Positions 32,416 to 62,391 of a DNA stretch of 64,000 nt are shown in pieces. The notes under the pieces are model-generated. The model saw only the letters and a list, made by a program, of their open reading frames with translations. It had not been told where the DNA came from and ran no database searches. This stretch comes from Candidatus Omnitrophota bacterium (GTDB lineage: Bacteria; Omnitrophota; Gorgyraeia; Zapsychrales; JANLHA01), in NCBI GenBank assembly GCA_023247795.1, contig JAHFFT010000008.1, positions 1,519-65,518 of the forward strand, in the 5' to 3' direction. Within the stretch, counting starts at the first letter, position 1. Every line of letters begins with the position of its first letter. Position numbers and translations under genes: made by a program.

Positions 32416-32476
32416 AAGTTAACAATAAGAGGGACTGTCCCCTAAGTTGACAATAAGAGGGACTGTCCCCTACCTA
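32416..32476. repeat. Tandem ~30-bp direct repeat (aagttgacaataagagggactgtcccct x2) carrying degenerate copies of the locus palindrome, immediately after giant-1 TAG stop
   Basis: Directly visible; RC reads TAGGTAGGGGACAGTCCCTCTTATTGTCAACTTAGGGGACAGTCCCTCTTATTG. Confidence 0.75.
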
Positions 32477-35400
32477 GAAAGGCCTAAAAATTGTGGTAGA
32501 TTGGCTACCGGACGTATGCTAAGGATGATTGGGGTGAGGCCGTGAATCTCAATCGATTCCAAGTCCTGCGGACTGACCTGCAAATCTAGGCCTTGCCCAC
32601 GCACATTGAGATTGACATTTTGCGGATTGAAATCAATACCTCCGGTACTGCTGGATGATCCGGGGTTAACCTCTTTTGGTGTATCTGGGTTTCCGGTCTG
32701 TACAGCCTTGTTGCTGCTCTGCAAATTTTCCCAAAAACCAAACGCCTGGGGCGAGATTGTAATATTTGGATTTGTCGGAAGTTCTACTCTGCTCTTATCA
32801 TCTGAAGAAAGAAAAAAATTATCAAATGACTTCGCAATGGGTTCATGTTTTGCCAACATAACAGTGGCCAACAATTGATTGCCTTCGGAAAATTTTCCTC
32901 CCTTAGTATCGTGGGTTGTTTGCATTCCTTTAAGAACAACAAACACCTGATTTTGCTCCATCCTGGTGCCACTTAAGGATAAAGAATACATCCATTCAAA
33001 AAAATGCCCCAATTCATGCACCATGGTCTCAGTGGGTTGATGCAAGTGCCCCCTGCTGATTCCCGATTGTGAATCGATGGCATCAGCCAAGTTGGCGCTG
33101 ATATAAACAGTATTGGTCCCCACAAAGAGACCGGAAAAATAAGGATTCTCCTGGGCAAGCCTGAAGTCGGTAAACCCCACTTTCTGAGCCATACTTGCCA
33201 CCAAAACCATCAGCCTTTTTTCATTATCAGTTTCCGGCTTTTTTTCAATTTGAGTTAAGTCGAGATTTTTGATTGCCTGTAAAATTCTCGCCATATGTTG
33301 ATGCTGCGCGGCATGAGGATCTTCACTGGCACCTTGATAATCAACTCCCCGCTTCTCAGCCTCTCTCCTCGCCCTTTCCGCGTTGATCTTCTCCTGAGTT
33401 TGCAGACGGCGGATATAAAGACTGGTTTTCTCCTCTTTCCCTTCTTTCGTAAACACTTCCAGTTGAGTAAAAAACGATAAAAGCACCCTCTGCTTCAATT
33501 CCTTTTCTCCAGCATCAACGGCATCTACCCCATCAATCATTTGTTTCAGAGAATCCAATTCCCAATGTTGTACAGGGTGTTCCGGGATTTCTTCTTTATC
33601 ATCCACTTTCTCATGGGCCCTATTGATCCGCGAAATCAAATCGGTTAACGTCGTCGTTCTTCCTTCCTCCGAAGTCAAATCAATGTGATCGGCGTAATTA
33701 ACAACGTTCCAATAATTTTCATTCTGCGATGCCTCCCAGTCCTCTGGAAACGACTCAACCGGATAATTCACGTTATTCAATCGTTCAACAGCCAGGGCCT
33801 TATAAAACTCCAAGGCAATATATTTCTGAAGGACCTCTTTAAAATCGTTGTCCTCTTCTTCAAAGGCATCCCGATTCTGATCCACAGTCAAAGGAATTTG
33901 GATCACCAGACGAAGTCGATGAAAATGCCCGGTCCGGCTTTTGTTTTCTTCTCCCTCGTCGGATTTATCATCTGCCAGTAACAACTCAGGAATGAGGGCC
34001 AGCAAATAACTCTCCATTTTAAGGTCATGCACCCTCAAACCATTTTTATCAACGATCTGAATCGGCACCCCCGGATCCTCCGTTGAATAAATGCGCATTT
34101 TCCCCTCATATTTTATCATCTTCTTGGTGCGCGGATGCGGGGCAATGAAATCAGTCTCGGTTAATATCTTTTTTCCTTTAACAGTCAAAGGGCTCAGTTT
34201 GTTCGCGTCATGAATATCGTCCTTGAAAAAAATCTGAAAACTCTCATCCTGTGACATCCCAGCAAACATCTTCCAACTGCGTTTGGCCAGCATCTGATCC
34301 AACTGCGGAATGGTCTTCTTCAAACTCTTAACGCGGCGTACCATGAAGTTAGCTTTCAATTGACTCGCGTCGCAGCGACGCACCCTGGTCAAACGCACCT
34401 GATGGGCTTCCCGATCAAGAACCATCACAAACATAAAGGCCTGTCCGTCACGATCCTTGGCGATGATCTCAATGCGGTCAACGCCGGCAAACGTGGTATA
34501 TTTACCAGTCCCAAAATAACCAGAAATTTTTCCCAACTGAGCAAAGGCCTCTTTGGTGGATTTCGGAATGATCAAAGCGAGCATCTTGCCAGGTACCGGA
34601 CCGTTGCCATCATCACTGATCTCTTCAATCAACTCATTAGCTTCTTCGTCCTTATAAAATTCCACAACCATATTTTTTGCCCCGCCATCCTTGGAATTTT
34701 GTGGCAGCTCGGCCGCGTATCCACCGGCTTCCCTTTGTTTCTGGGTATAATTATCGATTTCTGCTTTCAACCACTCGTCGTCAGGATAAGCCGCGATCAG
34801 GTCCCTTTGCTCCACCAACTCATCAATGGTGTGCATGTCCGCTTCGGTTTCCGGCCTCTGTTTAAGATCAAGATTCCAATTTGTTATTTTCTCAACAGGA
34901 AGACCATAATCATCCTTCAAGACATCCTCTCCTAGCGGGTCAAGGCGTTTCTTGACCCGGACCGGGGGCGCCTGATTGGTCAACAAGACAACATAGTCAG
35001 CCGCGTTGCCCAGATCTTCTAACCGGCGCTCGTCCTTTAAGGCCCGCGCAATTTTGCCTGAATCAACCTCGGAAAACGACTGGTACCATTTTAAAAGATA
35101 TTCCCCGCTGATTTGCGGATCCAAAAATAATTTCAATTGCCCCATCACGATCTCGATCGCCTGATCTTCGGCCCGGCCGGCCTCTTGCAGAAATTCAACC
35201 ATTTTCACGATCGTGTTGATCTCCAAACGATCTCCCCGCAACCTTCTTAACTCTGCCAATAACTGGTAAATCATAGACATCTGCTGCCACTCCCGCAAAG
35301 TCTGCGGCAGCCAGCCCAACATCATCACTTCAACCGCGTGTTCATCAATCGACGTTAAATCGATCTGCAGATTAGGATTCATGGCCAATTCAAATAATCC

Positions 35401-38400
35401 TTCAAATAAACGCTGATAACAATCTTGGCGCGTAAGCGAATTATCAATACCTTTCACCTGCTGGATCAATCGATCAATCAAGGTCTGATTGGTTGCGTCC
35501 GCGTGATTTAACACCTCAACAATCCGCTTCATCCGTCTGCTGAATTCCTCAGACGGCAGACCTCGCGTGTCGACTACACTCGCTTGAGAATCTACGGCAG
35601 ACTTGAAACGCTGATGAATCCCCCGCTCCTGACGTCGGTAAAAATCCTTAAACCGCTCTGAAAATTTATTTTCCGGCGATTCCCGATATTCCCGTGGAAA
35701 AAGGGATAAAAACGGTTCATAGGCCGTTTGCGCCTCGCTGATCCACTGATCGTGTTTGGATAAAACCTGTTCTTCCCAAAACGTACGGATTCGCTTTTGC
35801 CGGGCAAGCTGTTGTGCGCTCACCCTTACCTTACGAACCTTTTCCAGGTAGCGATCGGGATAAAAATAACGAAATTCATTTTCTCCTCGACGAAACTGAA
35901 AGTTATGGCCATAGGCCTGATAGACCTCGAAGCCGGATTCGACTTCATCGGTGATGTCATAGAGATGATCGTCTTGATCCAACAAATAATACCTCTCGTC
36001 ACGGTCTTGAAAAAGAATGAACGTGTTGTCTTCATTGACAAAACCATTTTTTATATCCATCCGCGCCTCAGTCATTGCGTTAGAAAATATATTTTCGATC
36101 TGCCGATTTCCTTTATATTCAAAACCGACTTTATTGCCTTTTAAACTGCCCAAATCATTTGACCAGTTTGATGGAGACTCGAATACTACCTGGGGGTTAT
36201 TTCCAAATTCTTCAATAAACTTTTTCTGCCTTACAGTCCCCTCCCGCCCTAAAGTAATCAAATCATCCTGATCAGTGATTATAAATTTTGTATCACTGTA
36301 AATGTTATCGGTATCTTTATAATGCAAAGTATAATGATCATCTTCATCCTCGGCTGGAAATAGTGCAATCTCCCGCCTAACTAAAGTTAAATTTTTATTT
36401 TCATATTCGATCCAATATCTGGGCAGGTTGTCTTTACCACCATTGATGACTGCCAATTTATTAAATTTATTACGCCCATCCAATTTAATAGGTGCCTGCC
36501 TAGGTTCCGGGCCGATCTTGCCAGTAAGCGGATCCTTAATGAATTCATAAAAATACTCATTTCTTGAGTCATATTCTGCAATGAACAAATAAACCCTTTG
36601 GCCGTCTTCGGCGATCGAGATACTGCCATTACCGAGAAAATCTTTATCGAACTCGGCAACGGATATGATTTCCCCTGTTCCCAAATGAACAATCCGACAA
36701 TTAGCTTTCCCCAGATTAACAATGGCAAAATTTCCAGTGTGATCAATGAGAACGTTTTCCGCTGTTCCCTTAAATATTTTATTACCACTAACCAAATCCA
36801 TAACAAAAAATTCACTCGTTGACTGATCCTTAAGAATGACAACATCGGCGTGATGATCGACATATAATTCATCATAATACATATACCCGCGCGCCTGATG
36901 AGATCCCATTACATGATCAAAAATAAAAGCAGCCTTCCTGCCTTGGCTATCACGTCCTTCATGGATCGAAAAACGGCCGGAATGAGAAAAATAAATTTCT
37001 TGCGTTCCCAGGTATTTAAGTTGATTTCCCTTGCCATCGTCATAATCTCCAGGGTGGACTGTATGAAACATAGGCAGGTTATTCGGTAGATTGCGAATCC
37101 CATCCAGAACACCCCAAACACTGCCCATGGCCTCTGTTCGACGATATTTGATATACTTTCCTTTGACCTCAACTATTTGATACCCCTCAGCATTGAATAA
37201 TGAAATCCGCGCCTCCAACTTTTGCCGATCAACCTCTGGCTCGCCTTCCGGCTTTTCCTTGGTGAACGGCTTTGCCTCCTGATCAATCTTGGTTATGAAT
37301 CCATCATCAACAAAACGCAAGTAAGGATTGACATAGATGACATTTCGAGTTTTTGGATTTTCTAAAACAAAATATTTTCCATCGAATGAGACGACCGGAT
37401 AATCATTTGCGTCGGCAAATTCAGCGCTGGTCGTACCATCGGGCAGATCCAAAACCTTGAGCTGTTGACCTTCTCGGATGACGGCATACTGCCCATCGCT
37501 AGACATGGCGACCAAGTCATACTCAACTGGAGTATCTAGAACTTGGTCATCCAAAAAATCACGATAAGACAATAGCTTTCCGTTAGCAACGGTATAAAAG
37601 GCCACTCCTTCGCGATAATAAACGATATCGCCTTTAAACCGAACTTTTTCACCTGTTTTCATCTCTGTTGCTTCCTGTGCTTCGACTTGTTGTTCTATCA
37701 ACAATGGAAATTTGGGATGAATACTCGATAAAACATAAAGGAAGTTAAACAGCTTATTTTCTCCCCTATAAACTCTGCCAAGCAAAAGCTCCGTTAATTC
37801 AATTCGATTCGCGAATATTGAGGACATTGATTGACCAGTCGTATCCAACATAATCTCCCCATCTTGATCGACAAAAAACCGTCTCCCCTCCAAGGTCTCG
37901 ATGACACAAAATTTATCCTGATCGTCAGCGTCATTAAAGGAGCCGAAATTAACGGCTGTAATGTGATTAGCATTAGCGATGATATATGGATTTTGAAAAG
38001 GATGTTCCCATGTTAGTTCCGGGGTCGCTGCGGTACTAATCAGCTTATGCGCCGCGTGAATGTATATTTGGAGCTGACCAGAATCAGTCTTAAAAACCGA
38101 AAACCGCTGCTGCGGGTCAGTGTAAACATTCCGGCCGGTAACGACATTCCCATTTTCTAAATCCATCCAGTAGAACTTACCGTCCGCGGCTTTGAGTTTA
38201 GCCATATGTTCAATCTCGCCATATTCGTAACTTACAGCCTCAAAGACAACATTCTGATGAAATTGCAAATCCCAGCTATAAAATTTCCTTATTCCGTTCG
38301 TCTCCTCCAGCCACATCACAAAGAGGCCGTTTTTACTCATGCGGACATCGTGCGCGCGACGGTCCGGCTCATATTTAAGAACTTCGGCAAAATCATCGAC

Positions 38401-41400
38401 CTGTTTTTCGGTTTCGGTATCGAGCATCGTGATTAAATTTTGAGTCGATATCACTGTTTCCGGCACATAAGCATACCTGCCGTCTGGACTAATTAATACT
38501 TCTTGACCACGCACTCCCAATTCTCTCACATAATTACTGTCTAAAATTTTAAAGAGTATTTTCTTTTCTTTAATGAAAAGAACTTCCAACAAATAAAAAT
38601 TATTTCTTAGAGGAATGATTGATTTAAACCGATACCCTTCACGATTCTTGACCACCTGCCCAGAGTTGATATCAATCAATTGACCTTTGTCATCAATCAT
38701 ATACCGTTTCCGCGCTCCTTCCGGAACCCGTTGATTTGATGGAATCAGCTCCGGCGGGTCTTTGGTCAAAAATTGATTGATCGCCTCAGAATCAATCCCT
38801 CCGGTCGACCTGGCAAACCGATAAGTCAATCTTTCTAACAGTTCCACTGTCTTTTGCGGTGTTTCCACTTCATAAGACGTCACCACCGTCTCATCGGTTA
38901 AAAGTTTGATCAACTGGGCTTGCTGGTAAAGCTCGATCTGCTCGCCCATCGTTAACTTTTGCCGTTTCCTACGTTCAACCAAAGCATTGAAGCGGGCCAC
39001 AAATTTTTTCGGGATCGCCACATACCCATCACCCTTAATCCGCGGAAGGGGGTGCTTCTTTAAAAAATCAAAGGTGTTGATATCAAAATTTTCAAATTCG
39101 TTGATAGTGTCCTCTTTGAAATCCACGGCCACCAAAGGAATTTCCCGGTCTTTTCCGTCGATGTTTCGAATCAAACGAAAAACAGCGGTGTCAACAACCT
39201 CAGCGCCTAAGGCCTTCAAACTGATCTGATCGTTCCAGTCAAAAAGGTGTTTGTCCAAATAAATGGTGGGATGTCCTGTTTCCACCTGGGCGAACTGCCG
39301 ATCATGCGGCAAAAAAACATACCCTTGGCTTTGCAGGTCCGCGACCACAGCCGCGATTCTATTTTTGACCGCATCGGTGATCTTACGGACGATATACTGA
39401 TTGTCCTCATTGTTTCCAGCCAAGGCCTGTAACCCGATGATCATCATGTTGATATATTTCAGCAGCCCGACAGGATCAGCATCGAGTTCAGGATTGGCTA
39501 GCAAGCCTTCCACCATCCGCTCAACGGCAAGTTTGATCGGCCAGCGCTGCCGCGGATCGTGTTCAGAAGGAAAAATGATCCCGCTCCTTGCCTGGTTGAT
39601 CTCAACCATGATCCCAAATTCCAGCACCAGTTTCCCCGGCACAATCGCGTCTGGATTGATCTTTTCGCCGACGGGGATTGTGGTGATGACCTCCTCGCGC
39701 CGGGCGATCGCGATCTCTGACTTTTGCTTTTTCGTGTCATGGATCACCATCAATTCCTTTAACTCGTCCTCTAAATTCTGTTCGGTCACGTAAGCGGGCC
39801 TTTTCTCCCCGCCCGCGGGCACCATCATCCGACTGACAGGTGAAGCCCCCATCCCTTTACCGTTATCAATGACCTTAATTTCGCGATCATCAAAAATGAG
39901 ATTGATTTCCTTACCCGTCGACTGTTTATCTTCGATGGTCGCGGCCCTTTGACCTGCCGGCATCAGGATACGGCGATGCTCTGCGCCGTTGACGACTTCC
40001 TCTATCCCACGCAATCTGGTTTTAATGGCGATATCCTTAACATAAGCGAATCGGTCATGGATTTCTTCTTTGATGCTCGTCAAGGAATTGAGGGATTTAT
40101 GTTCGTAAGGAATTTTTCCTTTGAGCTTTACACGTATAACCGTGCCGTTTTCATAAGCATTGTTTTCGGCGGCGGCCCGAAAATCATTCCTGGAAACCGC
40201 TTTGATCTGGATATACCATTGCCCGGTTGGGACGCGCAGGATCGTGAGCTGATATGGTGTACCACCTTTCTGTAGAGTATGCACATCAATCCGGTCCTCG
40301 CCGGTCGCCTCCAGCCAGCGGATGATCTGTTTGACCCCTTTTCCAAACTGTCCGAGCCGGCCGCCCAAAGCGTCAATGCTGTTTGAGGCCGCCTCAATGA
40401 TCCCTTGTTTGCGGGCGTTGCTCCCTTGCTTAAAAACTGTCTTTTCCAGCAAGTCCGACGGTTTATAAGTACCGGCGTTGATGGCATCGATTGATTCACC
40501 GTCGTAACCGCTCAAAGATAGGTGTTGAAGGATCTGCTGATAATAATTTTTCCTTTTCCTTGGATTGTATTCGCTTTCATCCGTGATGATGTTTAATTTT
40601 TTCAAAACCGCCTTGAGTTCATCTCCCTTCAAGCTGCCCTTTTCCATCCGCTCTTGAGCACGAATGAAATGCCAAATGCTGACACCATGGAACCCCTTGC
40701 CGTCGTCGTATTCCTTGGTGGTTGGACTGTTTTTAATTTCGTCGGTGGAACTCAACATCAACTTATCCATGCTGGACGCTGGCGCGGCATCCATTTGACC
40801 CGACGCTGGTCCGACAATGTCTTGCGTCAGCGTGTCAACAATCTCGACCTCGCCGTGGGAGAGCAACGCGGCAGCACTCACAGAAGAAACTTGCCGGAAA
40901 ACCCTTTCTGTTTCAACTCCGGCATTGGTCCCGCCGCCAAAATACTTGCGCGGGATCGCGCTTTTCGAAACAGGATCGGATTCTTCCCGAATCAAGTTAT
41001 AAACCCCCTTGCGGTAAGCCTCGATATACCGTTCATAAATCTTCTGGTTCACACGCTCATCCTCAACTTGAACACCGTTGGTCTTATTCTGATTCACGTA
41101 CTTTTGGCCCAGCAAACTTGACTTAAGAGCGCGCTTGTACCACGTCGCCAAGATAAGCGCGTCATAGATCTGGCGCAGTTGACCAAAATGCGATCCCTCG
41201 TTGATTTCCTTTTCTAAGGCCGGCAAAACGATTTCGCGCATGACGGTGTTCGACAATTCATTCAATGGTTCCGCATCCTTTGCCGCTGTTGAGTCCGGTC
41301 CCTTTTGATCCTTTTGCCGATTGGCGTCAGCAGCCAAATAGTCCGCATCCAGCATGACCTTAAGGTGACTCTTGACGATATACGCGGTATTTTCGTGGGT

Positions 41401-41985: not shown

Positions 41986-42001
41986 AGTAAATGATATAAA
42001 G

Positions 42002-42030
42002 AGTATAAAACATAATACTATAAATAACAA
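42002..42030 (-). promoter_or_regulatory. Putative sigma70-like promoter of giant gene 1 (TTGTTA-N17-TATACT)
   Basis: Minus-strand TTGTTA tttatagtattatgttt TATACT, 16 nt upstream of ATG 41985; same TATACT -10 as giant 2. Confidence 0.35.
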
Positions 42031-42127
42031 AACATTAGAGGAATAATGGTCCGCTAGATCAGAATGGACATTTCCTAAAAATTGTAAATTTGTAACTATT
42101 TTAATCAAAACGATTTACGCACTTATT

Positions 42128-42145
42128 AACAGGGGACTGTCCCCT
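42128..42145. repeat. Locus palindrome AACAGGGGACTGTCCCCT overlapping giant-2 TAG stop
   Basis: RC reads ...CAT CAA TAG GGGACAGTCCCCTGTTAATAAG; perfect 15-bp palindrome. Confidence 0.85.
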
Positions 42146-54100: not shown

Positions 54101-57100
54101 TAAGGTGGTTATCTGTCGTTACTTTGATTTTCAAAAAAATAGAGTATCCAACGGGTTGGAAAACACGACCGTATTCAAAAATATCAAATATACTCTCACC
54201 AGATTTATCTTTATGCTGTTCATCAAAACGTTCTAAGAGATCGAGCTGTTGATTGAGGTCCAATTCCCCTTCAACGCTTTTCTGCTCAACACTCGTTTCC
54301 GCCGCCGTCACCGCTGGCGTTGGAATGGCCTCCTCTTCTCTAACCTCGACTGGGGCTTGCGCTTGTTTCTTTTCTTCTGACTCGCGGGCGGTTTCTTTAA
54401 AAGCAGCGGCGGTATACGCCGACGCCACTTGTTTTTGCAATTCCACAATATCAACCGCCTCATACGTTTTGTCGGGATTAGCGTCGCTCAAATTCTTTTC
54501 GATTTCTTCTTTGCTCTGTGCCGCCCCTTCCACAAACTCAATGCTGAATCCAAACTCCTGCAAGAGATAGATAAATTCCTTGCATATCGGACTGTTTTTG
54601 TATTTTTCAATTTCACCAAAAATCACGATTGTCTTTTTGATTTCCTGCGATTGCGGGGCCGATTTGATAAAGCATTGCGCGAAAGGAAAACCTTGTAAGA
54701 GCCGCTCAAGACTGGGCCTCCCATCCGCGCCGAACTCATCTGATTGCTGTGGGCGTCGATCAACATAGGAACTCTCTAAAATGGCCTGCAGCTCGCGGAC
54801 AATGTTATGGGACAACTGCTGCATTTTGGGATCACGCTGACTCGATTCCTGCTGCCCCCTCCGGTATGAAACCTTTTTGGTCACGATCACGGGGGATTTG
54901 GGTTTGACAATTTGGGGGTTAGCTTTTACTGGATCTGGATTAAATTGATAGACGTTGTGATAAGGAGTTTGAGGGGGTTTTATTTTTTCTGACTCAGCAT
55001 CCTCTCCATTATTTCCAAACCCTTTCTTAAATCGAAGACCCGCTGGCAAATTATGCAAAAACTCCAAATCTTCCTCAGTCAAAGGCTCTCTATTCTCGAC
55101 CTTCTTTTCCAATTTTATTAATTTCCTTCTTCTTCGCTGTCTTTCATTAGCTTTCTCCCGAAAATCCGCCTTCTTTTCGTCTGGAGTCATTTGCTTAAGC
55201 TCTGTCCTTCGCTCCTTTCTTAACTGCTTTCGAATTTCCTTCACAGTCTGCGGATCTTGAGCAAGTGCAAATCTTACCATCGCCAATCTCATTGACAATG
55301 CCTTTACCCAACTTTGAACAAATGCCTTTTCTACATTTTCCGTGACCCTGTCCTCATTAACCCTGCAAAACTTATTGATGAGCGGCACCAAGGATCGATA
55401 AGCCAATTGATCTTTTAAACGATGCTCCATAATCATAAGGTCTTTCTTAGTAACTCTTGTGTCTCTTGACATGAGATAGGCCCACATCTCTTCAAGCTGA
55501 TCAATGAGATACTCCATATCAGCCTTTCTAACCCATTCCTCCTCTTGTCTTATCTCAGTTTTCATCTGCTCACGCTTTTCTGGCGTTAAATCAGGGTCCC
55601 TGGTTATCGGTGTTTCCTCTTCGGTAAAGGTTGGATTTTCATGACCGCTTTCCAGACTGACTTCCAAATTCGCCATGGCGCGATCTCTTTCCTGTTGTTC
55701 CCTTTCAGGAGAGATAGGCAGTTTCGGCGGATCAGGGACCCGGTCCCCTTCAATCATCAACATCGTTTCCTGAATTTCTCTGATCAGATTTTCCGCCCGG
55801 TACGTCTGGAATTGGATTTCCTCTTCATCCAATTCACCCTCAAATGAGCCGCGCGGAAATGTCAGTTTTAATTCTGTCATGGTCTCAAAATGGTCGATCG
55901 CGAGACGAATGGGGTTGGATTCTTCGCCATAGATATGGGCTCCACCATCTTTGAATTCTAAATCTTTGGCAAAAATCAGGAACAGATCTTTAACGCTCAT
56001 AGGTTCACCGTGCTCATCATCCAAACCCTCCAGCAATCCTCGGGAAAAGACAAGCAGACAGAGTTGAAAAATCCGGCGATGATTAAGTGAATCATGAGGC
56101 CGAGTCATCCACTCCTTCAATTGCTTGGTATTACGATTGTAAACCATTGCCGCGAATTCTTTTTCAGCAGCCGATGGCTTTCCCAAATTCGTCCTTGGCA
56201 AATAATGACGCAACGCTTCTTCATAACGCACATCTTCGATATTTTTCAATAAAGGAACGACTTCCAGGCCAGCCTGGTACGGAGCCCACGGCTGGACATC
56301 GCGGTGTAGCAATCCTCTCATCGTTTCATACATAAATTTCTCAGTGAAATAAGGATCGCCAAACATATTGGCATACATGGCAATCTGAGAAGAAACTTCC
56401 CCATCTTCATCCTCCGAGACCAAAAATTCCCCGCCGGGGTGATCGGGTTTATTCGCGATGATCGCGAATTTCGGTTGTCCCAAAGCCGTAGGAATGAAAA
56501 ATCCAGCCAATCTTTCCAAAAATTCAGTATCATTGTATTCCTTCTCTTGGAATCGCGTTCGCTCTCGTTTAGGGGCGAGCGGAATTTTAAGAAATTTGGC
56601 GATATAGAGCGGACCGTAGGTATGGGCAATGAGACTTTCCGTTAGCGAATTACTTTGCCGGGCGAATTCAGCACTGCCCAAATTTTTATACTGCTCCAAA
56701 AGACTAGCCATGATGTAATCCAGTTCCCGAAACGTCGGGCGGTGCTTGACATCGGCGATGTTCGCCCGCAGCCAGACATACGTTTGTATGACATAATTGC
56801 AGGCCTCAAGCATGACCGGTCGATCTTTAGTCTCGCTGATTGAGTAATTGACCCAGCGTTCGGCCAATACCTTAAGTTCTTTTTGCGTGTAATCATAGAC
56901 CCGTCGATAAACTATGCGGTTCAATAATGCCGTTGAGAGCTGTTGGCGGCCGCTGAAATCCATGGAATTGATCGTGGCGAATACTAAAAAACCGGCGCCG
57001 GCTTCCCTGGTCACCTCATTGAGTTTTCCTTCCAAAAAATCCGTGGGCAATAAATTCATCTCGCGGATGATCACCACCGCCCCCTCTTGCCGGGCGCGCT

Positions 57101-60100
57101 CAATGACCTTGACCAAATAATCCGCGTTATCCGGCTGGGCGTTGATCACGTAAAACCGCTTTTGATTGATATCAGCGAGATTGATTGGGGTATTCGAATA
57201 TTGCACTTCCTGATATCCCTTCAACCTTAAGGCCTTGATCAGAGCAACGTCTTTAGCCCGGCCCGGCGCTCCGTCGGTAATCATCCCCATCTTGCCTTGA
57301 AGAACTTTTTGATTATTACTGACCGCATCGATGCGAACTTCCCGCAAATCAAGCATCGTCATCTCATCATGAATCATCAACGCGGTTGAGTCGGTCATGA
57401 TCAAGGGCTTGTCGCTATCATCGATCTTTAAAACCTCTCCGGTCTGGCGCATGACTTTCTCGATCATGGCCCCTTCTTGTTTTGTCAACATCTCAACCCC
57501 GTACTTTTGCGCCAAGATGTGATGCAGTGCCTCTCGCTCTTCCCTATTAAAACTTCCACCATAAATCTGCCAGGCCAGATCAATGACCTCATTTTCCGTC
57601 CACCCATTGGGATAAAGAAAATTGACCCGTTGGGCCAGGTCCTGGACTTCCCGCAAAGCGAAACCCAAATTAGGGTTCATTCGGTTGAACAAAAAATGCA
57701 GGTCTAAAATGAGTGTTTCCAATTGATCTTTCCAAAAAGTTTTTTCCGGAAGATACTCTTGTTCCCGCATAATTCTCTCAATATCAGAACGCTTAAACGG
57801 TTTAAAAAAAATCGTGACCATGTACTCATCAATCAACTCCTGAAGTTTTCTTCCGACGAGCGAATCCTGGTTTCCGGTAAAGATGATTTTTTTATCCTTC
57901 AGATCTTGGTACCGGCCGTCAAGATACATATGCGGATTTTTACTGAAAAAACCTCTCAGAAAATTCCAAAAATACGGTTCAGTCAAATTCGCTTCATCAA
58001 CGATCAGAATCCCTTTTTCTGATTTGGCCCACTTAGCAATGGCCTCGTCCACAATCGGATTCGATTCGTTATTCTTTTCGTCCTGCTGATAAACGCGGCG
58101 GCTGATCACGTGTTCTTCTTTGGCATCATTCCCAACCGTTAAACGAAATATTTCATTCGGCTGATAATTCTTTGCCGCCAAAATCTGGGCCAGATGACTC
58201 TTACCCGATGCTGGAGGACCTTGAAACATGACCGCGTTGTTGATGAATAAAGCAGCGCCGGCCATGCGCTCCCGGTATTCCCAGGTGTCTTCCCCCGCGT
58301 TGGTTTCGAAATCAATAGAAGGGACGACGGTTGCGCCAATGACTTCCTGCTCCCATTCATCTGTAGCCGCGTAAAGCGCGAATTTCTTTCGATAAAAATC
58401 AGCGTGCTCAGTATCGTTCCTATCATCAAAATGCTTGATCAAAGCGGTCCGGATCATTTTATGGACGGCCGCGCCAGTCGCCATTTGTGAATCGGTCCCT
58501 AACATTTTTTTAAATCCTCGCAAAAACTGCTCTATCTCGTCTGGATTTTGCGCGTCAAATTTCGGTGCCCTAAAATCGGTCCCAAGTTTTGCCTGGATTT
58601 GATTCAACAAATCGAGACTCAAGGTATCCACGAATTCCCAAAAATACCGGTCCCAGCGGACCGGATAAACGGTCTTTTGCAAAATCCGTTTGAGCCGTTT
58701 GCCGTGGAGGCTCTTTTCATTTCGCTTTTTGTCTCCATCCAAAGTGAACTCCCGCTCCTCAACGTCAAAAATCAAGCGGACCATGACCCGCATGTAAGAA
58801 ACAAGCTCTTGGTCCTCGGCAAATTTGGAAATGACCACTTGTTCAAAGGCTTCAAGCCAGGTATAACCTAGACCGACATATTTAAAAAGCAAACGAAGAC
58901 GGTAAAGATTGAAATTCACTTCTTCCCGGTTGATCCCATCCAGCTGGTTGAACATATCACGCAGTTTGATAATTTTCTGATAATCGCCTCGATTAAACGA
59001 TGCTTTTATTTCTTCGTCATCCTGCAGCATCATCTCCATCAGAGCGTCGTTGGGATTCATACTGACCTGATTGACCGCGGTTGAAGATTCCTGGGCCAGC
59101 GGCTTTTGCAGCACGATCAATCGACCAGGCAAATCCACCCTCATGCCATTGACCATGATATATGGATCTTCCTGCAAGGCTGATTCCAATCCCTGACAAA
59201 GCACTTTATTGTGCTCGGTACCGACCAAGACCACTGTTTTCCCTTGCAACAATTTTTCATAAATTTCTTGAGAGCTTGACGTGTACTTGCGTTTTCCCTC
59301 GGTCGAAGAAAAATCTGGAAACTCAAAGAGTTGATTAACGGTTGTCTCCGCCGTGACCGGATAAACCACAAATTCATCAGGATCATAGGAGGACTCAATC
59401 GTACGCAGCGCGAACTCCAGATCTTTTGATTCCACCAAAATCGATTTCTTTTCTTTCACGTCTTCCCATTCGCTCAATTTACGTTCATTGCTTTGGGTCT
59501 TAAGGGCCTTGGAACGAAGCTTGAGATACGCCTTCGGCACCGGCACCCAGGGCGCTACTTCGATGATTATATTCCCATCAGTGTGCATGATCGCGTGCCA
59601 GACCCAATCGTCGAGATGGCTGGTCACGGCCAAACGCACCCGCTGATTTTTTAACTGTTTCGGAGTCTTCAACAGATCCAAAATTCCGGCTTGACGGGTC
59701 AGTTGATTCTCTTCTCTGACGTTATCAATGTGATTGCGTTTAAAAAGAAAATCCTGCGTTTGCTTGTTGATGATCCAGACCTGATCTCCTTCGTCTGGCA
59801 TTTCTTTCCAGGCGACAAGCTTTTTTTGACTGACACCTTTACTAAAATCAACATCCTCACGGTAAATCTTTACCCCATCTGGGATCACAATCGTTTCCAT
59901 GTTGAATTCCTGCGCCGGATTTTCAATGAATTGCCGGATCAAGTCCCGGAACGAAGGATCTTTAAAATCACCACCCCGCAAAACAATCGCGGTGTCCTTC
60001 TTCGCGTTATTGAGCTGCCCTGGGATGACTAGAATTTCGCCGTTGGGACCAATATCATAAGTCCCGAGCAAAAGTTCACGGGCAAAAGGGGTTTCATTCA

Positions 60101-62300
60101 AATCAACCTTGACGGCGTTTTGCGGAATATTTTTGATTGGCAATCGATCGACCGGATCCTGATAATCCATCTTAAGGGCCCGATGCCGCAGACGTGAAGT
60201 GAACGAACTGTCAAAACGATCGACCTGACGGTCGCTGACGACCCCGTAAACTTTAATATTCTTGTTCAATTTCAGGTCGGCATAACCAGGATCGTCGTCG
60301 AACATCCTATGAAACCCGCCGGCCAAATTCGGAGCAGAACCGTTATAATCGATCAAAATAATGGCCTCTTTCGAATCCTTCAAAGTCCTGCGCAAAGGAC
60401 CGTCAACATGTTCATAACTTCCGTCGGGATTGACCCGAATCGCTGATTTCAAACGGTCCAAATCGGTCTTGTTTCTCGGTCTGATGAGTAAAAAATCCCT
60501 CCCCTGCGCTTTCGCGGCTTGTGACAATTCATGAGCAACCGCGTCAGAATTGTCGGCGATGACCAGCCCCTTATTTTCTTTTAAAAGCTCTTCGGTTGTG
60601 ATGTGAAAATCATAGGCCGCGCTGCCACCAGCGGCGATGTTGATGGATTTTTCTGTTTGGGCTAGCTCCAACTCTTCAGGATAAAGTTCTTCAACAGCGG
60701 TCCTTGAAGGAAGCATTCCCTGCCGTCGGGCTTCCACAAAAAGCGGATCAATGTTACGCGAATTGTTATGAAAGGTGTCACGCAGCTGCTCAGCGTAAAC
60801 GAAATTTTCTTGAATCCAGCGGCTCATCTCCTGAGGCTGTTTGCCTAACATTCTGCGCAGCGCCTCCCACTGAGTTATTTCATCCAACTCGTGTAGGCGC
60901 ACCGCCTCATCACTCGCGTAATCCTCGTCGATATAAATGACCGGAATTCCGTAAGTCTGCCCCAACCCGATATGGGCAAATTGCCCAGTCGCCTTGAGCA
61001 ATCCTGGGATCGGGACCAGCCTGCTCTGAACTTGCCCATTTTGGACCAAGGCATATTGACTGATCTTGGCTTTGTCTTGCTTAAGCCCTTCTGGCAGATG
61101 ATCAAAAATATATTTATTCACAACACGGTGCGGGACCAGGGTAACCTCATTGCTGATCAACTTGCCCCTTGCCGTGATTCCAGTCTCGCTCCCGACTTTA
61201 GCAATGATGTCTTTGATATTCATAAGATTCATCCCACCGGAAAAATACTTGCGCGGTAGGGACGAGTCACTGCCAGGAGAGACCTCTTCCTTAATATAGC
61301 TGTAAACTCCTTTTTGAAACGCTTCCAAATACTGCTCATAAATTTTTTGTTTAACTTCTCTATCATCGACAGCAATCCCTTTCACCTTGGCCTTATCGAT
61401 GTAAAGCGACTGCATAATGCTTTGCCGCATGTTCTGCTTATACCAGACAGCCAAAATCAAAGAATGATAAACCTGTCTGAGCTGGGCGAAATTCTGGCCT
61501 TCATTGACCTCTTTTTCAATCACCGGGATGATCAATTCACGGATCACCTGCGAAGACATCTGGTTAACTTCTTGGACATCTCCAGCTGGCAAATCTTTTG
61601 TTTTGAATTCTTCACTGCTCAGGTTCTTTTGCAGCGACAGATAATCTTCATCAAGCATGACCTTGAGGTCACAGCCCACAACGTAGGCGGTGTTGTCCTT
61701 GGTAAAAATCTTGGCGGATTTGGGAACGATCCAGACTTTATTGAAGGTATTGATCGGGATATCGGTGGTGCCAAATTTTTCATAGGCTGTTTTATAAATT
61801 TTCTGCCAGAATTGCCGACCCAATTCCGATTCTGGATAGAGCAATGAGGCTGAAAGCTGTTTGAGCAGATAATCCTGGCCCAAAAGGTCCCGGCCCATTT
61901 CCGTAATGCCAAATTCATTCGGGACAATGCGGTCTTTTTCATAAGGGGACAAATTGACCCAAAGGTCTTTTTCCGGGGTTGTTAAGGCCGCCAAAAAATA
62001 CTTGATCAACTTCTGCGATTCCGCGTTAAGAGGAGCACCTTCCAGCCCGGATTCACCGGTATCGACAATGAAATCGAACCGAAAGGGTTCTGTAGGATAG
62101 ACTTTAATCCCTTTGAGGACCGCTGGGACAAGCCCGTTACTCACGGGAACCATGGTCCCAGGAACCGGCAAGTTCAGGCCAACTTTAGCATAAGTTGTTG
62201 TTGGGCATAGAATTATGGATAGAATCAGTGCCGAAATAATGGCATTATTCCCCAAACGCATAATTCCGCGGTGAGATTTTTTAAGATAAGATTGAAACAT
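42144..62300 (-). CDS. Giant secreted/surface protein 2 (6,718 aa): N-terminal giant-family domain, two MoxR/midasin-like AAA+ domains, ~11 kb of LRR-like tandem modules, conserved C-terminal domain
   Basis: Uninterrupted 20.2-kb ORF starting at ATG 62298-62300 (in-frame TAA three codons upstream). Signal peptide MRLGNNAIISALILSIILCPTTTYA. N-domain ~65% identical to giant 1 (LNLPVPG...WVNLSPYEK...GTTxIPINTFNKVWIVP). AAA#1 Walker A GPPASGKS (~58200-58225), Walker B ILIVDEANL. AAA#2 GAPGRAKD (~57255-57285), VIIREMNLLP (~57050). Repeated LSGTGVT(D/N)I(S/T/A)PLFG, LENLTK...HNNHE, DYRECLKA and FLAxHPNR modules. C-terminus GGIDLDPS...IDLQV...GFTPVI...NLPLFLGIS matches giant 1. Confidence 0.85.
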   Translation of the reverse strand: MFQSYLKKSHRGIMRLGNNAIISALILSIILCPTTTYAKVGLNLPVPGTMVPVSNGLVPAVLKGIKVYPTEPFRFDFIVDTGESGLEGAPLNAESQKLIKYFLAALTTPEKDLWVNLSPYEKDRIVPNEFGITEMGRDLLGQDYLLKQLSASLLYPESELGRQFWQKIYKTAYEKFGTTDIPINTFNKVWIVPKSAKIFTKDNTAYVVGCDLKVMLDEDYLSLQKNLSSEEFKTKDLPAGDVQEVNQMSSQVIRELIIPVIEKEVNEGQNFAQLRQVYHSLILAVWYKQNMRQSIMQSLYIDKAKVKGIAVDDREVKQKIYEQYLEAFQKGVYSYIKEEVSPGSDSSLPRKYFSGGMNLMNIKDIIAKVGSETGITARGKLISNEVTLVPHRVVNKYIFDHLPEGLKQDKAKISQYALVQNGQVQSRLVPIPGLLKATGQFAHIGLGQTYGIPVIYIDEDYASDEAVRLHELDEITQWEALRRMLGKQPQEMSRWIQENFVYAEQLRDTFHNNSRNIDPLFVEARRQGMLPSRTAVEELYPEELELAQTEKSINIAAGGSAAYDFHITTEELLKENKGLVIADNSDAVAHELSQAAKAQGRDFLLIRPRNKTDLDRLKSAIRVNPDGSYEHVDGPLRRTLKDSKEAIILIDYNGSAPNLAGGFHRMFDDDPGYADLKLNKNIKVYGVVSDRQVDRFDSSFTSRLRHRALKMDYQDPVDRLPIKNIPQNAVKVDLNETPFARELLLGTYDIGPNGEILVIPGQLNNAKKDTAIVLRGGDFKDPSFRDLIRQFIENPAQEFNMETIVIPDGVKIYREDVDFSKGVSQKKLVAWKEMPDEGDQVWIINKQTQDFLFKRNHIDNVREENQLTRQAGILDLLKTPKQLKNQRVRLAVTSHLDDWVWHAIMHTDGNIIIEVAPWVPVPKAYLKLRSKALKTQSNERKLSEWEDVKEKKSILVESKDLEFALRTIESSYDPDEFVVYPVTAETTVNQLFEFPDFSSTEGKRKYTSSSQEIYEKLLQGKTVVLVGTEHNKVLCQGLESALQEDPYIMVNGMRVDLPGRLIVLQKPLAQESSTAVNQVSMNPNDALMEMMLQDDEEIKASFNRGDYQKIIKLRDMFNQLDGINREEVNFNLYRLRLLFKYVGLGYTWLEAFEQVVISKFAEDQELVSYMRVMVRLIFDVEEREFTLDGDKKRNEKSLHGKRLKRILQKTVYPVRWDRYFWEFVDTLSLDLLNQIQAKLGTDFRAPKFDAQNPDEIEQFLRGFKKMLGTDSQMATGAAVHKMIRTALIKHFDDRNDTEHADFYRKKFALYAATDEWEQEVIGATVVPSIDFETNAGEDTWEYRERMAGAALFINNAVMFQGPPASGKSHLAQILAAKNYQPNEIFRLTVGNDAKEEHVISRRVYQQDEKNNESNPIVDEAIAKWAKSEKGILIVDEANLTEPYFWNFLRGFFSKNPHMYLDGRYQDLKDKKIIFTGNQDSLVGRKLQELIDEYMVTIFFKPFKRSDIERIMREQEYLPEKTFWKDQLETLILDLHFLFNRMNPNLGFALREVQDLAQRVNFLYPNGWTENEVIDLAWQIYGGSFNREEREALHHILAQKYGVEMLTKQEGAMIEKVMRQTGEVLKIDDSDKPLIMTDSTALMIHDEMTMLDLREVRIDAVSNNQKVLQGKMGMITDGAPGRAKDVALIKALRLKGYQEVQYSNTPINLADINQKRFYVINAQPDNADYLVKVIERARQEGAVVIIREMNLLPTDFLEGKLNEVTREAGAGFLVFATINSMDFSGRQQLSTALLNRIVYRRVYDYTQKELKVLAERWVNYSISETKDRPVMLEACNYVIQTYVWLRANIADVKHRPTFRELDYIMASLLEQYKNLGSAEFARQSNSLTESLIAHTYGPLYIAKFLKIPLAPKRERTRFQEKEYNDTEFLERLAGFFIPTALGQPKFAIIANKPDHPGGEFLVSEDEDGEVSSQIAMYANMFGDPYFTEKFMYETMRGLLHRDVQPWAPYQAGLEVVPLLKNIEDVRYEEALRHYLPRTNLGKPSAAEKEFAAMVYNRNTKQLKEWMTRPHDSLNHRRIFQLCLLVFSRGLLEGLDDEHGEPMSVKDLFLIFAKDLEFKDGGAHIYGEESNPIRLAIDHFETMTELKLTFPRGSFEGELDEEEIQFQTYRAENLIREIQETMLMIEGDRVPDPPKLPISPEREQQERDRAMANLEVSLESGHENPTFTEEETPITRDPDLTPEKREQMKTEIRQEEEWVRKADMEYLIDQLEEMWAYLMSRDTRVTKKDLMIMEHRLKDQLAYRSLVPLINKFCRVNEDRVTENVEKAFVQSWVKALSMRLAMVRFALAQDPQTVKEIRKQLRKERRTELKQMTPDEKKADFREKANERQRRRRKLIKLEKKVENREPLTEEDLEFLHNLPAGLRFKKGFGNNGEDAESEKIKPPQTPYHNVYQFNPDPVKANPQIVKPKSPVIVTKKVSYRRGQQESSQRDPKMQQLSHNIVRELQAILESSYVDRRPQQSDEFGADGRPSLERLLQGFPFAQCFIKSAPQSQEIKKTIVIFGEIEKYKNSPICKEFIYLLQEFGFSIEFVEGAAQSKEEIEKNLSDANPDKTYEAVDIVELQKQVASAYTAAAFKETARESEEKKQAQAPVEVREEEAIPTPAVTAAETSVEQKSVEGELDLNQQLDLLERFDEQHKDKSGESIFDIFEYGRVFQPVGYSIFLKIKVTTDNHLKAFNKLDLAKLTMVTEVELEGEGLVGLFELFKLENLTEFTFKPIVQLDPGIKRGLIRFLFRHLNHEDLKIILPSGEELIFSELLHYEEFHDMIKDAVNEDFEKVKKIISRMTELPAGTIVPRLTDNGNSIAITVNSFTGPLPDLSAICRVNYVKTIVFSEISRFTDLANFQKLSGSKKSMQLDFDYDKNLQDISFLSEFDLKDFSSINLSGTGVTDISPLFGKAWVAVLDLNQVSGISEKQVYQFYIRHPDQAMRVLNQVLNLSFGSSEFSSFLNTYRDKISQQLEDDRLEVNMALEQNHLGGIALTAVSLNENEAFVDVYFGSLPVDDPNIKNFIKGLRPAVAASLRLEFETITELREFTDYRECLKAIEREAGLGTVKEESAKKSVSPLVTWDFSTREGQLAYLQSFITKHKNDFPDAMVARVSNEEGIYLATTVTPQNLALFRDLEFEKLTLLTHVKIGCDNFQDVVDRFLKLENLTKVGLRTANPLDESAEKAVVNLLVNHNNHEALGIVLNGGQEIKHEGLSKLDGPFQHVLPTWVDDEIVKAIDQQFKIAQEELDKISGFPRGAIKVEHDLKGIKIQVDLEKGSLPDLTPLYRLSYVSAIDIRYPSKLDLTELAKLNAHKGGVRLYFGKDPDFNDISILENLNLNDASVDILGTGVTNITPLFGHPIKALRINSDVPVKQVWQLWTRYPAFHRPIIVITEAIIGTSKSRHIMKEEMSTYYEEHKKEIEEEFQQDTQAVKWYFKGKKDGGGMKNVENVRIFASPSEGYVDVAFQSGSPLAEQEIKGFINGLNPTDAPSLRITMPDGTVFTDYRECLKAIEQGAATGPVAEQRSETEEPVAPVEPPISEVAGAELPIIKQFEILMEFREKFRKDFEYFTPDLIATSPEDGYLRLRVKVTSKNIDIFRQLDFAKLTLLKEVEIAFDDLDAVYALVKLDNLTKLTLISNNPIDEKAVAKFLINHNNHERLRIDLPGSFTYTFLGLKLHSDQRYPSQEWVHEQIEEAVNHQLKIAQRELAKIPGLPDGSVRLQVNKEMIQINVELTEGRLPDLSAIYRLGYFGILNVEYPSRLDLSEISKWNVHRGNKTLLLSNDPQLTDISFLERVDLDQATISLSGTGVTNIAPLFGCPIQELFIDSQVSAKQVLQLWTRYPDIGRSQFNLMFSFVDKFILHISFPNQEIKIADEESMAKYTKQHSQEIAKGMRLDAAELDLLLISIIDEGNTPSARGINVRSDKDGFVDMTLPKIKPLTNQEITRIIRLLPPSIAASLRIIMPDGRVFADYRECLKALAQEEVTTQVSAPNQKPELSVEEQKNQLFELFSGILNGFGSDRVVDFQDDTFPKGAGIVLSLMHLKGVGDIFHPSSKASQAIRSTSFHNVGIVELDNTDVEYLDGLLNFKNLKLLSLKNLLPGAVSVDQIKAFLRVHSNRKNLRILMPDDKQLTLADLEREGQVVEAQVEVQMPAEEKISATGPEGIAQFNILSDFSKEHGSEFALFVPSLKHISTGEPYFSLQVDVTEENYDTFATFAQNEFAKLSLLTEVDIKIKVEQADRLDPLLSLENLTRLKLRQEMPNEFLVNLLMRHKNREKLEIELSDGRKIWWPVATSSKNQAAQQTETSAKRAQPSEEESTNNFLQRERLAVYLAGRIIGFDPHRVALWNGSYLVLDLHGLSNYDLHQIEDRAFSDYPALEAVDLSEAEPMDLNFLYSARNLKEISFKGLKKTSSSIGEEDIKKFLARHPNRWFLKVVMPDESELDFKSLDQKSKAGVCKEAERNIVARLRNQGMVELADFSVHETEGSVVLVLKRIPSAADLSVLNDIIPLDKIKINFDASSERGKLALRQIGKNKNIRNVQFDSKANPNSLDLQQIVEDFPNLYVLGLPKTANDLSPCLQLKYLRQLLLYRGEALSLQGMDDFYRQRPDMKLCLLPSSWNSGLVDYKDYQDFIAKNEGQLSELAGTQDELPLGKALDSSPAEEISSQKQRLADYLASVIPGFDKGNVAPLPRIDRSQSLAVDLFDQPVAVLRQIESNAFVDFPDLEWVGLATANVDPTVLATFYSAHNLRVISFKGSLPSRASLKNIKYFLAHHPNRQFLQIFLPDGSELNFGSLEEDYKTEAVKEAKKDIVDKLKGQGMQEGTDFSVDETDEGSVVLVLKSPPSNKDLTGSLTGVSLRASLSVLQDVLRLDEVKINFDASTERGKRALSSLGLNRNIRDIQIDDASNPNPLDLNQIVEFFPNLYDLVLHKAANDLSPCLRLKYLKSLSVYLGQGLSLEDIAQFYQQRPNLQLTFFLPSGDEFTMESYDRFMAEYGDRIKPEEASNLNPESAEQAVNDNNPQKYYLIGLLAAAIGGFDSYRIRFREDVGEGNKELLLDLSGMSARDLGKIKRRALINSPALTKVDLSASALNDLDFLYGAYNLTAVDLSNLLPGSVTEEDIRRFLAHHPNRMMLKVKMPDGREWKLANLDPSFVEEVRQEAMQNIRQKLTEGSSLVFDQNFSITAESGLGGYVILKIKKPPVTTDGSANVDLGVLSDDLRLDQVIVEFSSVDAKDYQSLRALATNKNVGFLTFSAPVLTGDFSFLEDFDAIISLDLAKSGIRDLSPILRCANLRTLTLPWDGSLTIEQINEFYQQRPNLNINLRDETDHSGFKYFYGSYESFLKANQNQLSGQKSPAKVEEKSQPSTVSAAGLEETQPTNWLETIDDQADYLFDSGLVTPTAIHFDDDNRPYIAAEFKITPENYKKFSELPFERLTFLKRIDMGTSTFSKDGDFRPLLGARHLRYLDLSRMNTVDNSRDFATSDLLLWHVNQDNLIIVPAAGMEFGIEGIVDSAVDKVIAFQSITAKEILKELGLRPDQADVHIQPGKKSGKKELPYLALVLKNVTTIPDLSKLNHLSFLKQVILRNASLIVDYGHLRDLNEFQQLKILTVDDPQATELPCLQGVDVFELELNTPKLQSLYHLNGNVIRILDLQNTNVPSHQILHLCRAHPLRKDFTLQPPRKKWVLKGVDEIEKFFEREIQVVIDLQSALKHYVENLGRLYSIPSGDVKGTLTHVAGSIVVDFSKIPSTKTLTLTNALKALVDHPYPEVFQLKTFDSGGVVTDVRERIDAMKREEQELSPALLSPAPQDEQARALQRLADMNAQMESFTKQAAAVRAFFGPDQMIKGFMELSQPFQTIGLHFDGQVPSLQPLSQIPDLKKMFMIWDEENLKELRHVPQLRELTIYGLEAGGLEFLSPLQELRHLVFTSDEQIDLELLNDLKKLQVVKITSAYCTIEQVKQLLETHPNGEHMIVILNGLMYTRGGQMPNFPSSGKNTLYGQVAKVGYFMGANFSKEKFMSINVPAIEQTKRIDLDLQHDKNGQAIKHSLTNMDKLKGLPNLYSLKVNASIFSTGQLGFEDLVSLRHFELKGNGTLTLKTIPPMENIIYLNLEFDAVDGNLNSLNSMPNLTYLGIHLEDSMSGRDDLYRFMAQHPNGRNMVVFVNDKFTVTYDDVPDEYKKTGEEELSAEVKPFSSELPELKELSLPEQIALAKEILQRSHMPLTDETLSTFKDTDGTTVIKLDLTKSKPSGESLYLKDLHKLRNLASVALPTMVGNYLRLVIHTCEWPRLKELILTEDQTVGWDFGFVAYLIIAIHPRGKELTIKNGNKAAITYEDVSKQVIGEIGSGFSLDHQLSFLKHIGIVHNVSNHFIRGPDDTFSLDLSQVNPKDLRIEFLRQIKRIKTLRLPFMKFNDRLISILEALPNLQVIEMTSGELIPEMRQSIAELFKRIDRADLELRIDGQKPLTRADMTPEFLGVAAAPVVIQQEEAAEPIEVNAFLVNLLNSLVDVELTLQQVREQFKDEGEEKIFHRVLMGLMDARGIDARVQAGAGKMYNKMLRNDAFFLSKTESEPMNLNTSVEIIPSVMLHPGWQNSPEAQIPGGIDLDPSLIQMQVEGEGIDLQVTDSAEGLSQIPIEGFTPVITHTVPITNLPLFLGISPQPVTPEEVALHQ
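45900..54300. repeat. Intragenic tandem repeats within giant gene 2 (three ~1.1-kb units and at least three ~1.4-kb units, ~70-75% nt identity)
   Basis: For example 47290-47420 vs 48390-48520 (period ~1100 bp), and gccttcaaacactcccgataatc at 50228, 51636 and 52998 (period ~1.36-1.41 kb). Confidence 0.8.
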
Positions 62301-62357: not shown

Positions 62358-62391
62358 AGGGGGGGACAGTCCCCTGTGCAAAACCTGTTAA
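62358..62391. repeat. Locus palindrome plus 34-bp segment near-identical to the giant-1 5' coding region, upstream of giant-2 promoter
   Basis: ggggggacagtcccctgtgcaaaacctgttaaaaac, 32/34 identical to 41935-41970. In the giant-2 reading frame it translates *QVLHRGLPPPMLIIAKNSVYFTLNHR*, a stop-interrupted relic of giant 1's FTQVLHRGLSPLL. Confidence 0.75.

Follow-up and report, generated by a model that had tools for sequence, protein, structure and literature searches.

Two adjacent giant genes in a 64,000-nucleotide stretch of DNA from a Candidatus Omnitrophota bacterium (the window) encode proteins that resemble each other at both ends and have unrelated cores. They are members of a very large, apparently undescribed family seen almost only in Omnitrophota. 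The members share a frame made up of a putatively cleavable Sec signal peptide, an alpha/beta N-domain of about 340 aa, a C-terminal module (the tail) of about 60 aa and a hydrophilic extension of 0-80 aa, and the cargo held between N-domain and tail is nearly always unique. We lean toward the view that this frame is a Sec-exported bipartite handle that would direct its inserted cargo to a common envelope or surface destination.

The two genes lie head-to-tail on the minus strand in the ORF list (Table 1). The reading frame of giant 1 is open as far as a TTG at 42108 (32470-42108), but its start is most plausibly the ATG at 41985 because the signal peptide then fits the family pattern. A BLASTP comparison of giant 1 with giant 2 returned exactly two HSPs, one at the N terminus (50.8% identity over 362 columns, E 5e-110) and one at the C terminus (34.7% identity over 118 columns, E 1.5e-12), and no other alignment at E<1e-3. 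Since the two ends alone align, the cores are unrelated. These comparisons bear out the original prediction of two neighboring minus-strand giants that are paralogous at both termini, with a homologous C-terminal segment and different cores; the N-domain identity of roughly 65% that it gave was too high. The N-domain of giant 1 is up to 56% and that of giant 2 up to 59% identical to relatives in the fetched loci, and a word-index search placed the giant 2 N-domain at 53-60% identity to database relatives. Because their mutual identity is 51%, against up to 56-59% elsewhere, the giants are old paralogues and not the products of a recent duplication.

Table 1. Parts of the two giant genes, in positions of the window.
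Feature	Positions	Strand	Extent or sequence	Basis
Giant 2, complete frame-family gene	42144..62300	-	6718 aa, ATG	ORF list; N-domain and tail homology
Giant 2 signal peptide	62187..62300	-	aa 1-38, ...TTTYA/K	Sole hydrophobic segment of the protein; translation checked
Giant 2 conserved N-terminal domain	61134..62186	-	aa 39-389	50.8% identity to giant 1
Giant 2 variable core	42369..61133	-	~6255 aa	Non-repetitive, mostly unannotatable
Giant 2 AAA_5 P-loop ATPase domain	57861..58232	-	aa 1357-1480, Walker A GPPASGKS	Pfam
Giant 2 C-terminal tail module	42189..42368	-	QIPGGIDLDP...GFTPVITHTVPITNLPLFLGI	Tail HMM, 75.3 bits; translation checked
Giant 2 post-tail extension	42147..42188	-	14 aa, hydrophilic	Compare family extensions
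Giant 1, complete frame-family gene	32470..41985	-	3171 aa	ORF list
Giant 1 signal peptide	41893..41985	-	aa 1-31, ...PPVYA/Q	Sole hydrophobic segment; translation checked
Giant 1 conserved N-terminal domain	40837..41892	-	aa 32-383	BLASTP against giant 2 and fetched loci
Giant 1 variable core	32656..40836	-	~2727 aa	Non-repetitive (self-BLAST, core clustering)
Giant 1 weak GHKL match, HATPase_c_3	34402-34713	-	aa 2425-2528	19.4 bits against a Pfam cut-off of 25
Giant 1 HELGH (HExxH) motif	33004-33018	-	aa 2990	Motif scan, one copy
Giant 1 tail module	32479..32655	-	SSSTGGIDFNP...GLTPIILSIRPVANLPQFLGL, then SR and stop	Tail HMM, 75.5 bits; translation checked

The cores themselves yielded little to annotation. 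Sensitive self-BLAST detected no internal repeats in either giant. The core of giant 1 had no match in an 80-core comparison, and that of giant 2 resembled neither giant 1 nor any of 80 other cores at E<1e-10. Searches by phmmer with the whole of giant 1 and with two halves of giant 2 gave nothing useful, an NCBIfam scan of the giants returned 0 families, and PADLOC reported no defence-system match. AAA_5 alone exceeded a Pfam cut-off in the giant 2 core (E 4.1e-9, 37 bits against a cut-off of 22), and this domain qualifies as AAA+. The second AAA+ domain that had been proposed was not recovered, as giant 2 contains one canonical G....GK[ST] Walker A motif and a looser [GA]....GK[STN] scan added a single match, ALRQIGKN at aa 4573, where there is no AAA match. 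The thousands of LRR-like residues ascribed to giant 2 likewise dissolved into traces below threshold (LRR_14 at E 4e-4, PDB 4r58 at E 0.002), with 13 matches to an LRR regular expression against 9.7±3.2 in shuffled sequences, which is no enrichment, and with no self-hits. For giant 1, two GHKL ATPases had been suggested. One survives as a sub-threshold match whose region carries the motifs ELPQNSKDG and DDGNG (aa 2426-2462); in the other, the first in the chain, the N-box and DxGxG lie 176 residues apart and Pfam gives no match. The HExxH motif is present as proposed, and no propeller match was found for the supposed beta-propeller-like region.

We then turn from the cores to the shared ends. 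An exhaustive profile search with the N-domain over 1.84 billion cluster representatives gave 8382 matches at E<=1e-3, 6765 of them at E<=1e-30. The best 150 of the 8382 are proteins of 420-4969 aa, each with a single copy of the N-domain whose start falls no further than roughly residue 50 and whose end lies no further than roughly residue 440. A word-index search with the giant 2 N-domain returned 1349 proteins, whose source names are nearly all Candidatus Omnitrophica/Omnitrophota; word-index matches have about the length of the query (340-570 aa here, and fragments of 39-128 aa in a further listing), and these lengths are not family sizes. Nearly all named matches come from Omnitrophota MAGs, which bears out the resemblance noted earlier to the giant genes of uncultivated and possibly predatory bacteria. 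By title, the fetched loci are Omnitrophota or, for one set of ENA MAGs, 'uncultured Planctomycetales'. In a profile scan of one genome per GTDB species we counted at least 579 N-domain copies, several per genome. Frame genes often stand in tandem, with three each at loci L044, L032, L036 and L070, and the giant pair is one more such array. The description 'huge' does not hold for the family as a whole: of 147 sampled representatives, those with the tail measure about 1500 aa at the median, and a 438-aa member has no cargo.

The N-domain, about 340 aa long, is recognizable by the motifs LPxPG, WVNLSPYE, GRDLLxQDYxLKQ, FNKVWIVP, LRQxYxSLILAxWYK and PRKYFSGG, and 49 columns are invariant in 36 sequences. 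The AF2 model of the giant 2 N-domain is alpha/beta with long helices (pLDDT 72). Neither end matches Pfam or NCBIfam, and searches of the PDB with the N-domain gave no sequence match, profiles included, and no fold match, which agrees with the earlier remark that neither shared end was recognized as a named family.

The tail was defined by an HMM built from the fetched loci (consensus ETPGGIDLNPANLNLQIKGDGEGIPLPLDPQQLENLNIEGFVPVIINITPVTNLPLLLGL) and follows the pattern GGIDxxP...GFxPVIINIxPxxNLPxLLG over about 60 aa; a single-sequence search with the giant 2 tail produced no matches. In 80 loci, 62 of 67 complete N-domain ORFs (753-3349 aa) carry the tail. Among independent representatives it was found in 117 of 147, ending a median of 14 and at most 78 aa before the C terminus, and those lacking it are mostly short and possibly truncated. 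The reverse also holds: the N-domain is present in 65 of the 72 ORFs that carry the tail and are intact at the 5' end, the exceptions being mostly genes split by frameshifts or N-runs. The coupling of N-domain and tail is therefore close to strict in both directions. The sole candidate for a tail outside the frame is a 351-aa protein (L081:580-1635) that has a weak GDPGP1_N match and a weak C-terminal match to the tail HMM (27.6 bits) and lacks the N-domain. Across the family the post-tail extension is 0-80 aa long, hydrophilic and often acidic, and no hydrophobic stretch was seen on reading. The divergence of the N-domain correlates with that of the tail (Mantel r 0.50, permutation maximum 0.33), a result compatible with interaction between the ends or with shared descent alone.

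Set against this constancy is the variety of what the frame holds. Eighty cores fell into 71 clusters at a lenient threshold. The cargo is nearly always unique, and it may be as small as a 15-residue linker or exceed 6300 aa. Pfam analysis of 50 cores identified phosphoglycerate kinase (PGK), enolase, glutamate dehydrogenase, alanine dehydrogenase and transketolase, as well as RmlD, PPDK_N, CofD, PP2C, methyltransferase and receiver domains and HEAT/TPR. The cargo is thus largely of cytoplasmic type, resembling what has been reported for Omnitrophota giants. The label 'adhesin-like' given to the giants fits poorly, given that adhesin repeats are absent and many cargos elsewhere in the family are cytoplasm-type enzymes. 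A natural empty frame also exists. This 438-aa protein (P0078), encoded on five contigs and followed there by a 1110-aa frame gene, consists of the leader, the N-domain up to PRKYFSGG, a 15-aa linker and the GGID-type tail. The site of insertion is therefore fixed: cargo enters between PRKYFSGG and GGID. That cores are replaced while the slot stays the same is directly evident at two loci syntenic with the window (L002 and L012), where a 505-aa upstream ORF, one frame gene of about 2000 aa and MoxR/DUF58/BatA/BatB genes follow each other; the core of this frame gene has no relation to the core of either giant, and its middle differs between the two loci. The cargo is freely replaced in evolution, and the frame is under strong constraint. 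The original prediction, that one N/C frame is shared by proteins with exchangeable cores, is strongly supported by the profile searches, the coupled ends, the core clusters and the syntenic loci, and the family is far larger than the sequence alone could show.

How might such a frame work? Its architecture and its export, for which the evidence is given below, are well supported. According to the reading that we lean toward, a frame protein would pass the inner membrane via Sec, after which N-domain and tail would function jointly as a single handle. The handle would then dock either to an export route or to some component or lattice of the envelope that is conserved, and many unlike cargos would arrive at the same extracytoplasmic destination, which may be the periplasm, a surface coat or prey. 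AF2 models the tail of the empty frame as a short helix plus a strand (residues 405-411 by DSSP). Because DSSP calls this strand though the tail has no other, the model suggests that it pairs with the sheet of the N-domain; the predicted docking is of low confidence (pLDDT 57-65), and this counts against joint action of the two ends. Within ±10 kb of frame genes we found no conserved partner, secretion system or processing enzyme, and the recurrent neighbors belong to generic two-component and ABC families only.

The same observations bear on a second reading, which we consider rather unlikely, in which the ends act separately. The C-terminal module would be a linear sorting signal for a dedicated envelope machine that recognizes it and perhaps cuts after LLG, by analogy with the T9SS C-terminal domain and PorU or with sortase substrates, and the N-domain would be an independent retention or anchor module like that of LapA-type adhesins. 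The tail is indeed short and strongly patterned, the variable and often acidic stretch after it could be a propeptide that is removed, the docking predicted by AF2 is weak, and giant-gene papers report T2SS/Tad-like loci near giant genes of Omnitrophota. However, up to 80 aa follow the tail, unlike in most C-terminal signals, and the tail has neither a transmembrane segment nor a basic end. No sorting-domain match was obtained in NCBIfam or Pfam, the ±10 kb around frame genes contain no recurrent processing enzyme or secretion gene, and the empty frame shows the two ends 15 residues apart in a compact protein.

Polymerization offers a different role for the tail strand. The PVIINI strand of one subunit could enter the N-domain sheet of the next by donor-strand exchange, as in chaperone-usher and type V pili, and the resulting coat or fibre would display the cargos and contain empty frames as plain lattice subunits. 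Several features would suit such an assembly: prolines flank the tail strand and beta-hairpins are exposed on the N-domain, paralogues are many per genome and often in tandem arrays, empty frames exist, the degree of N-domain conservation fits lattice contacts, and a cultured relative has been described as 'coated'. No chaperone-like or usher-like gene neighbors the frame genes, though, and we regard this explanation as unlikely.

The case for export comes from the leader and from amino acid composition. In each giant the one hydrophobic segment is the N-terminal leader, which has a basic n-region and a predicted cleavage site (VYA/Q in giant 1, TYA/K in giant 2). Of the full-length family members sampled, 94% have a hydrophobic leader, whose n-region contains a median of 3 K/R, and most of the sampled leaders end in AQ- or PQ-type sequences a few residues before the conserved LPxPG. 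Exported bacterial proteins typically exclude cysteine, and the cysteine-poor cores are consistent with export for this reason: the median cysteine content of the cores is 0.0% compared to 1.03% in neighboring ORFs (Mann-Whitney p 6e-32), and giant 1 and giant 2 contain 0.13% and 0.34%, respectively, compared to 1.09% in the other proteins of the window. The family-wide signal-peptide features and the extreme cysteine depletion agree with the earlier description of the giants as secreted. Additional hydrophobic segments occur in 59 of 147 sampled members, and topology may therefore be mixed. Export of PGK, enolase and AAA+/GHKL-type ATPases is unexpected because they need cytoplasmic substrates such as ATP. 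It is conceivable, if improbable, that there is no export at all, and that an uncleaved leader instead anchors the protein in the inner membrane, with the core on the cytoplasmic side as a multi-enzyme scaffold. Cytoplasmic-type domains (PGK, enolase, AAA+, GHKL, receiver) that require ATP or phosphorelay partners would then be in their usual compartment, and a 2026 preprint takes many Omnitrophota giants as membrane-anchored. But basic residues precede the hydrophobic core, so that by the positive-inside rule everything after it should be outside, conserved AxA-like sites come just ahead of the mature LPxPG motif, and the near absence of cysteine from the cores is hard to explain for cytoplasmic enzymes.

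The chance that the shared termini are an artefact of assembly or annotation, such as collapsed repeats or chimeric contigs, is negligible, even though the window seems metagenome-derived (MAG-only relatives, an ENA metagenome contig) and another assembly breaks inside giant 1: repeat-driven misassembly, raised alongside the original prediction, is not credible because the only DNA match between the giants spans 379 nt at 69% identity and their longest common exact word is 15 nt, open frames of 6718 and 3171 codons cannot be chance, the same architecture recurs in hundreds of independent assemblies, and an independent ENA contig repeats the 3' 7.2 kb of giant 1, its last 2391 codons, beside the same MoxR/DUF58/Bat genes. 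This contig (ERZ27297570, 16.7 kb) matches the window at about 23.0-39.6 kb, encodes an identical DUF58 protein and ends inside giant 1, 7177 nt upstream of the stop, from which we conclude that giant-type genes fragment short-read assemblies. Many database relatives are flagged 'partial'.

Several features of the surroundings deserve description in their own right. Directly downstream of giant 1 is a complete Bat-type operon (23580-32277, minus strand) with genes for a MoxR AAA+ protein, DUF58, a 203-aa ORF, BatA, BatB, a TPR protein, BatD and a TPR-SH3 protein. Bat genes adjoin the frame gene at L002 and L012 as well and lie 5 kb upstream of the frame genes at L070; the other loci are without them. 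As the association is confined to four loci including the window, we rejected the operon as a general frame partner and treat it as lineage synteny. Between MoxR and DUF58 is a 118-aa ORF (30858-31214, minus strand), whose counterpart on the ENA contig is annotated 23S_rRNA_IVP with weak bAvd matches. Accessory proteins of diversity-generating retroelements are among the members of bAvd, a four-helix-bundle family; in the window no reverse transcriptase was seen. The 505-aa ORF upstream of giant 2 (62460-63977, minus strand) has no Pfam match and is kept at the same position in L002 and L012 at 52-53% identity. The first 23,000 nucleotides of the window (1-23000) are ordinary chromosome, with genes for a prepilin peptidase, aroE, leuA, ilvC, pfk, ahcY, metK, PTS enzyme I/EIIA, CofD, frr, pyrH, tsf, rpsB, an ABC exporter and lpxB, the last of which implies a lipid A-containing outer membrane.

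A palindrome, GGGACAGTCCC, occurs at six sites in the window (62449-62459, 62363-62373, 42133-42143, 41937-41947, 32459-32469 and 32431-32441), that is, 12 matches counting both strands where 0.58 are expected. All six border the giant genes: the palindrome directly follows the stops of the upstream ORF, of giant 2 and, twice, of giant 1, and it is also found upstream of the giant 2 start and within the giant 1 leader. A longer unit, GGGACAGTCCCCTGTT[TA]ATA..TAAATCG, is common to two of the post-stop sites. The palindrome is absent from the 80 related loci (1.25 Mb) and could be a terminator-like hairpin, a REP-like element or an operator. A general hairpin after frame genes was considered and rejected, since 27 of 71 have one.

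Omnitrophota giant genes have been published before, as Archaeovorins and Dockerin-type proteins (West-Roberts et al., 2023 preprint), in a catalogue of long proteins (Nielsen and Lui, 2026 preprint) and as giant ORFs of more than 20 kb (Seymour et al., 2023). These papers describe N-terminal regions without identifiable domains apart from C39/S8 peptidases, and a conserved frame of N-domain and C-tail is unreported in them. Giant 2, from the same phylum and 20.2 kb long, falls under the definition of a giant ORF of more than 20 kb, and like Archaeovorins both giants have a signal peptide, sequence that largely defies annotation and a scattering of cytoplasm-type domains (AAA_5, HATPase, PPDK_N and HEAT as listed for Archaeovorins). 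Archaeovorins and Dockerin-type proteins are distinguished by extracellular HEAT repeats with many transmembrane helices or by dockerin together with arrays of TSP3 repeats. In contrast, giants 1 and 2 have no Pfam match to HEAT, dockerin or TSP3, no transmembrane helix beyond the leader and no repeats. Moreover, size is not the defining trait of the frame family, which lies mostly at 0.4-5 kaa.

Among systems in other bacteria, the T9SS cargo of Bacteroidota is similar in combining a Sec leader and a conserved C-terminal module on diverse proteins, with many paralogues per genome. It differs in that the frame tail, about 60 aa, is not terminal and is accompanied by a 340-aa N-domain that is also needed, and in the phylum concerned; the frame proteins gave no TIGR04183 or TIGR04131 match in NCBIfam, the tail gave no Pfam match, and no T9SS genes were seen. 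LapA/RTX giant adhesins, with their N-terminal retention module and C-terminal T1SS signal, likewise have conserved terminal modules around a large variable middle, and retention at the surface is plausible for the frame proteins. Substrates of T1SS lack a Sec leader and have RTX repeats, whereas the frame proteins have a Sec leader, non-repetitive cores and no RTX match. Polymorphic toxins and effectors share with the frame family a constant trafficking part, payloads swapped by recombination and different payloads at the same locus. The frame payload, however, is internal with both ends conserved, includes housekeeping-type enzymes and is not followed by an immunity-like small gene. Signals of the PEP-CTERM, LPXTG and GlyGly-CTERM kinds were excluded, as the giants have no C-terminal hydrophobic segment and the extensions are hydrophilic. 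Type V secretion (autotransporter barrel or TPS) was also rejected: only AIDA appeared in Pfam, at E 0.31, and the N-domain is modeled as alpha/beta with long helices.

What is new here is not the giant ORFs but the frame, neither end of which is covered by a curated family; it follows a familiar pattern, conserved trafficking ends on polymorphic exported cargo. Omnitrophota giants have been described as poorly conserved and difficult to compare, and a searchable frame is a handle on thousands of proteins, including smaller relatives. The 438-aa empty frame is a testable unit and a candidate for expression and structure solution. The frame points to a common destination for highly diverse cargo and raises the question of why cytoplasm-type enzymes sit behind a signal peptide, stripped of cysteine. 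We propose only tentatively that it is the recognition or anchoring module of an undescribed, Omnitrophota-specific pathway of surface display or delivery. Such a pathway would place hundreds of cysteine-free cargos outside the cytoplasm, in the cell coat or in or on prey cells, from glycolytic and other cytoplasm-type enzymes to multi-kilodalton giants, and would be a new protein-sorting system with a scope comparable to that of the T9SS C-terminal-domain system. HMMs of the frame would bring annotation to a large body of metagenomic dark matter. The frame has a fair chance of marking a new sorting or display route, and if it does, it would explain the surface equipment of these ultra-small, host-dependent bacteria.
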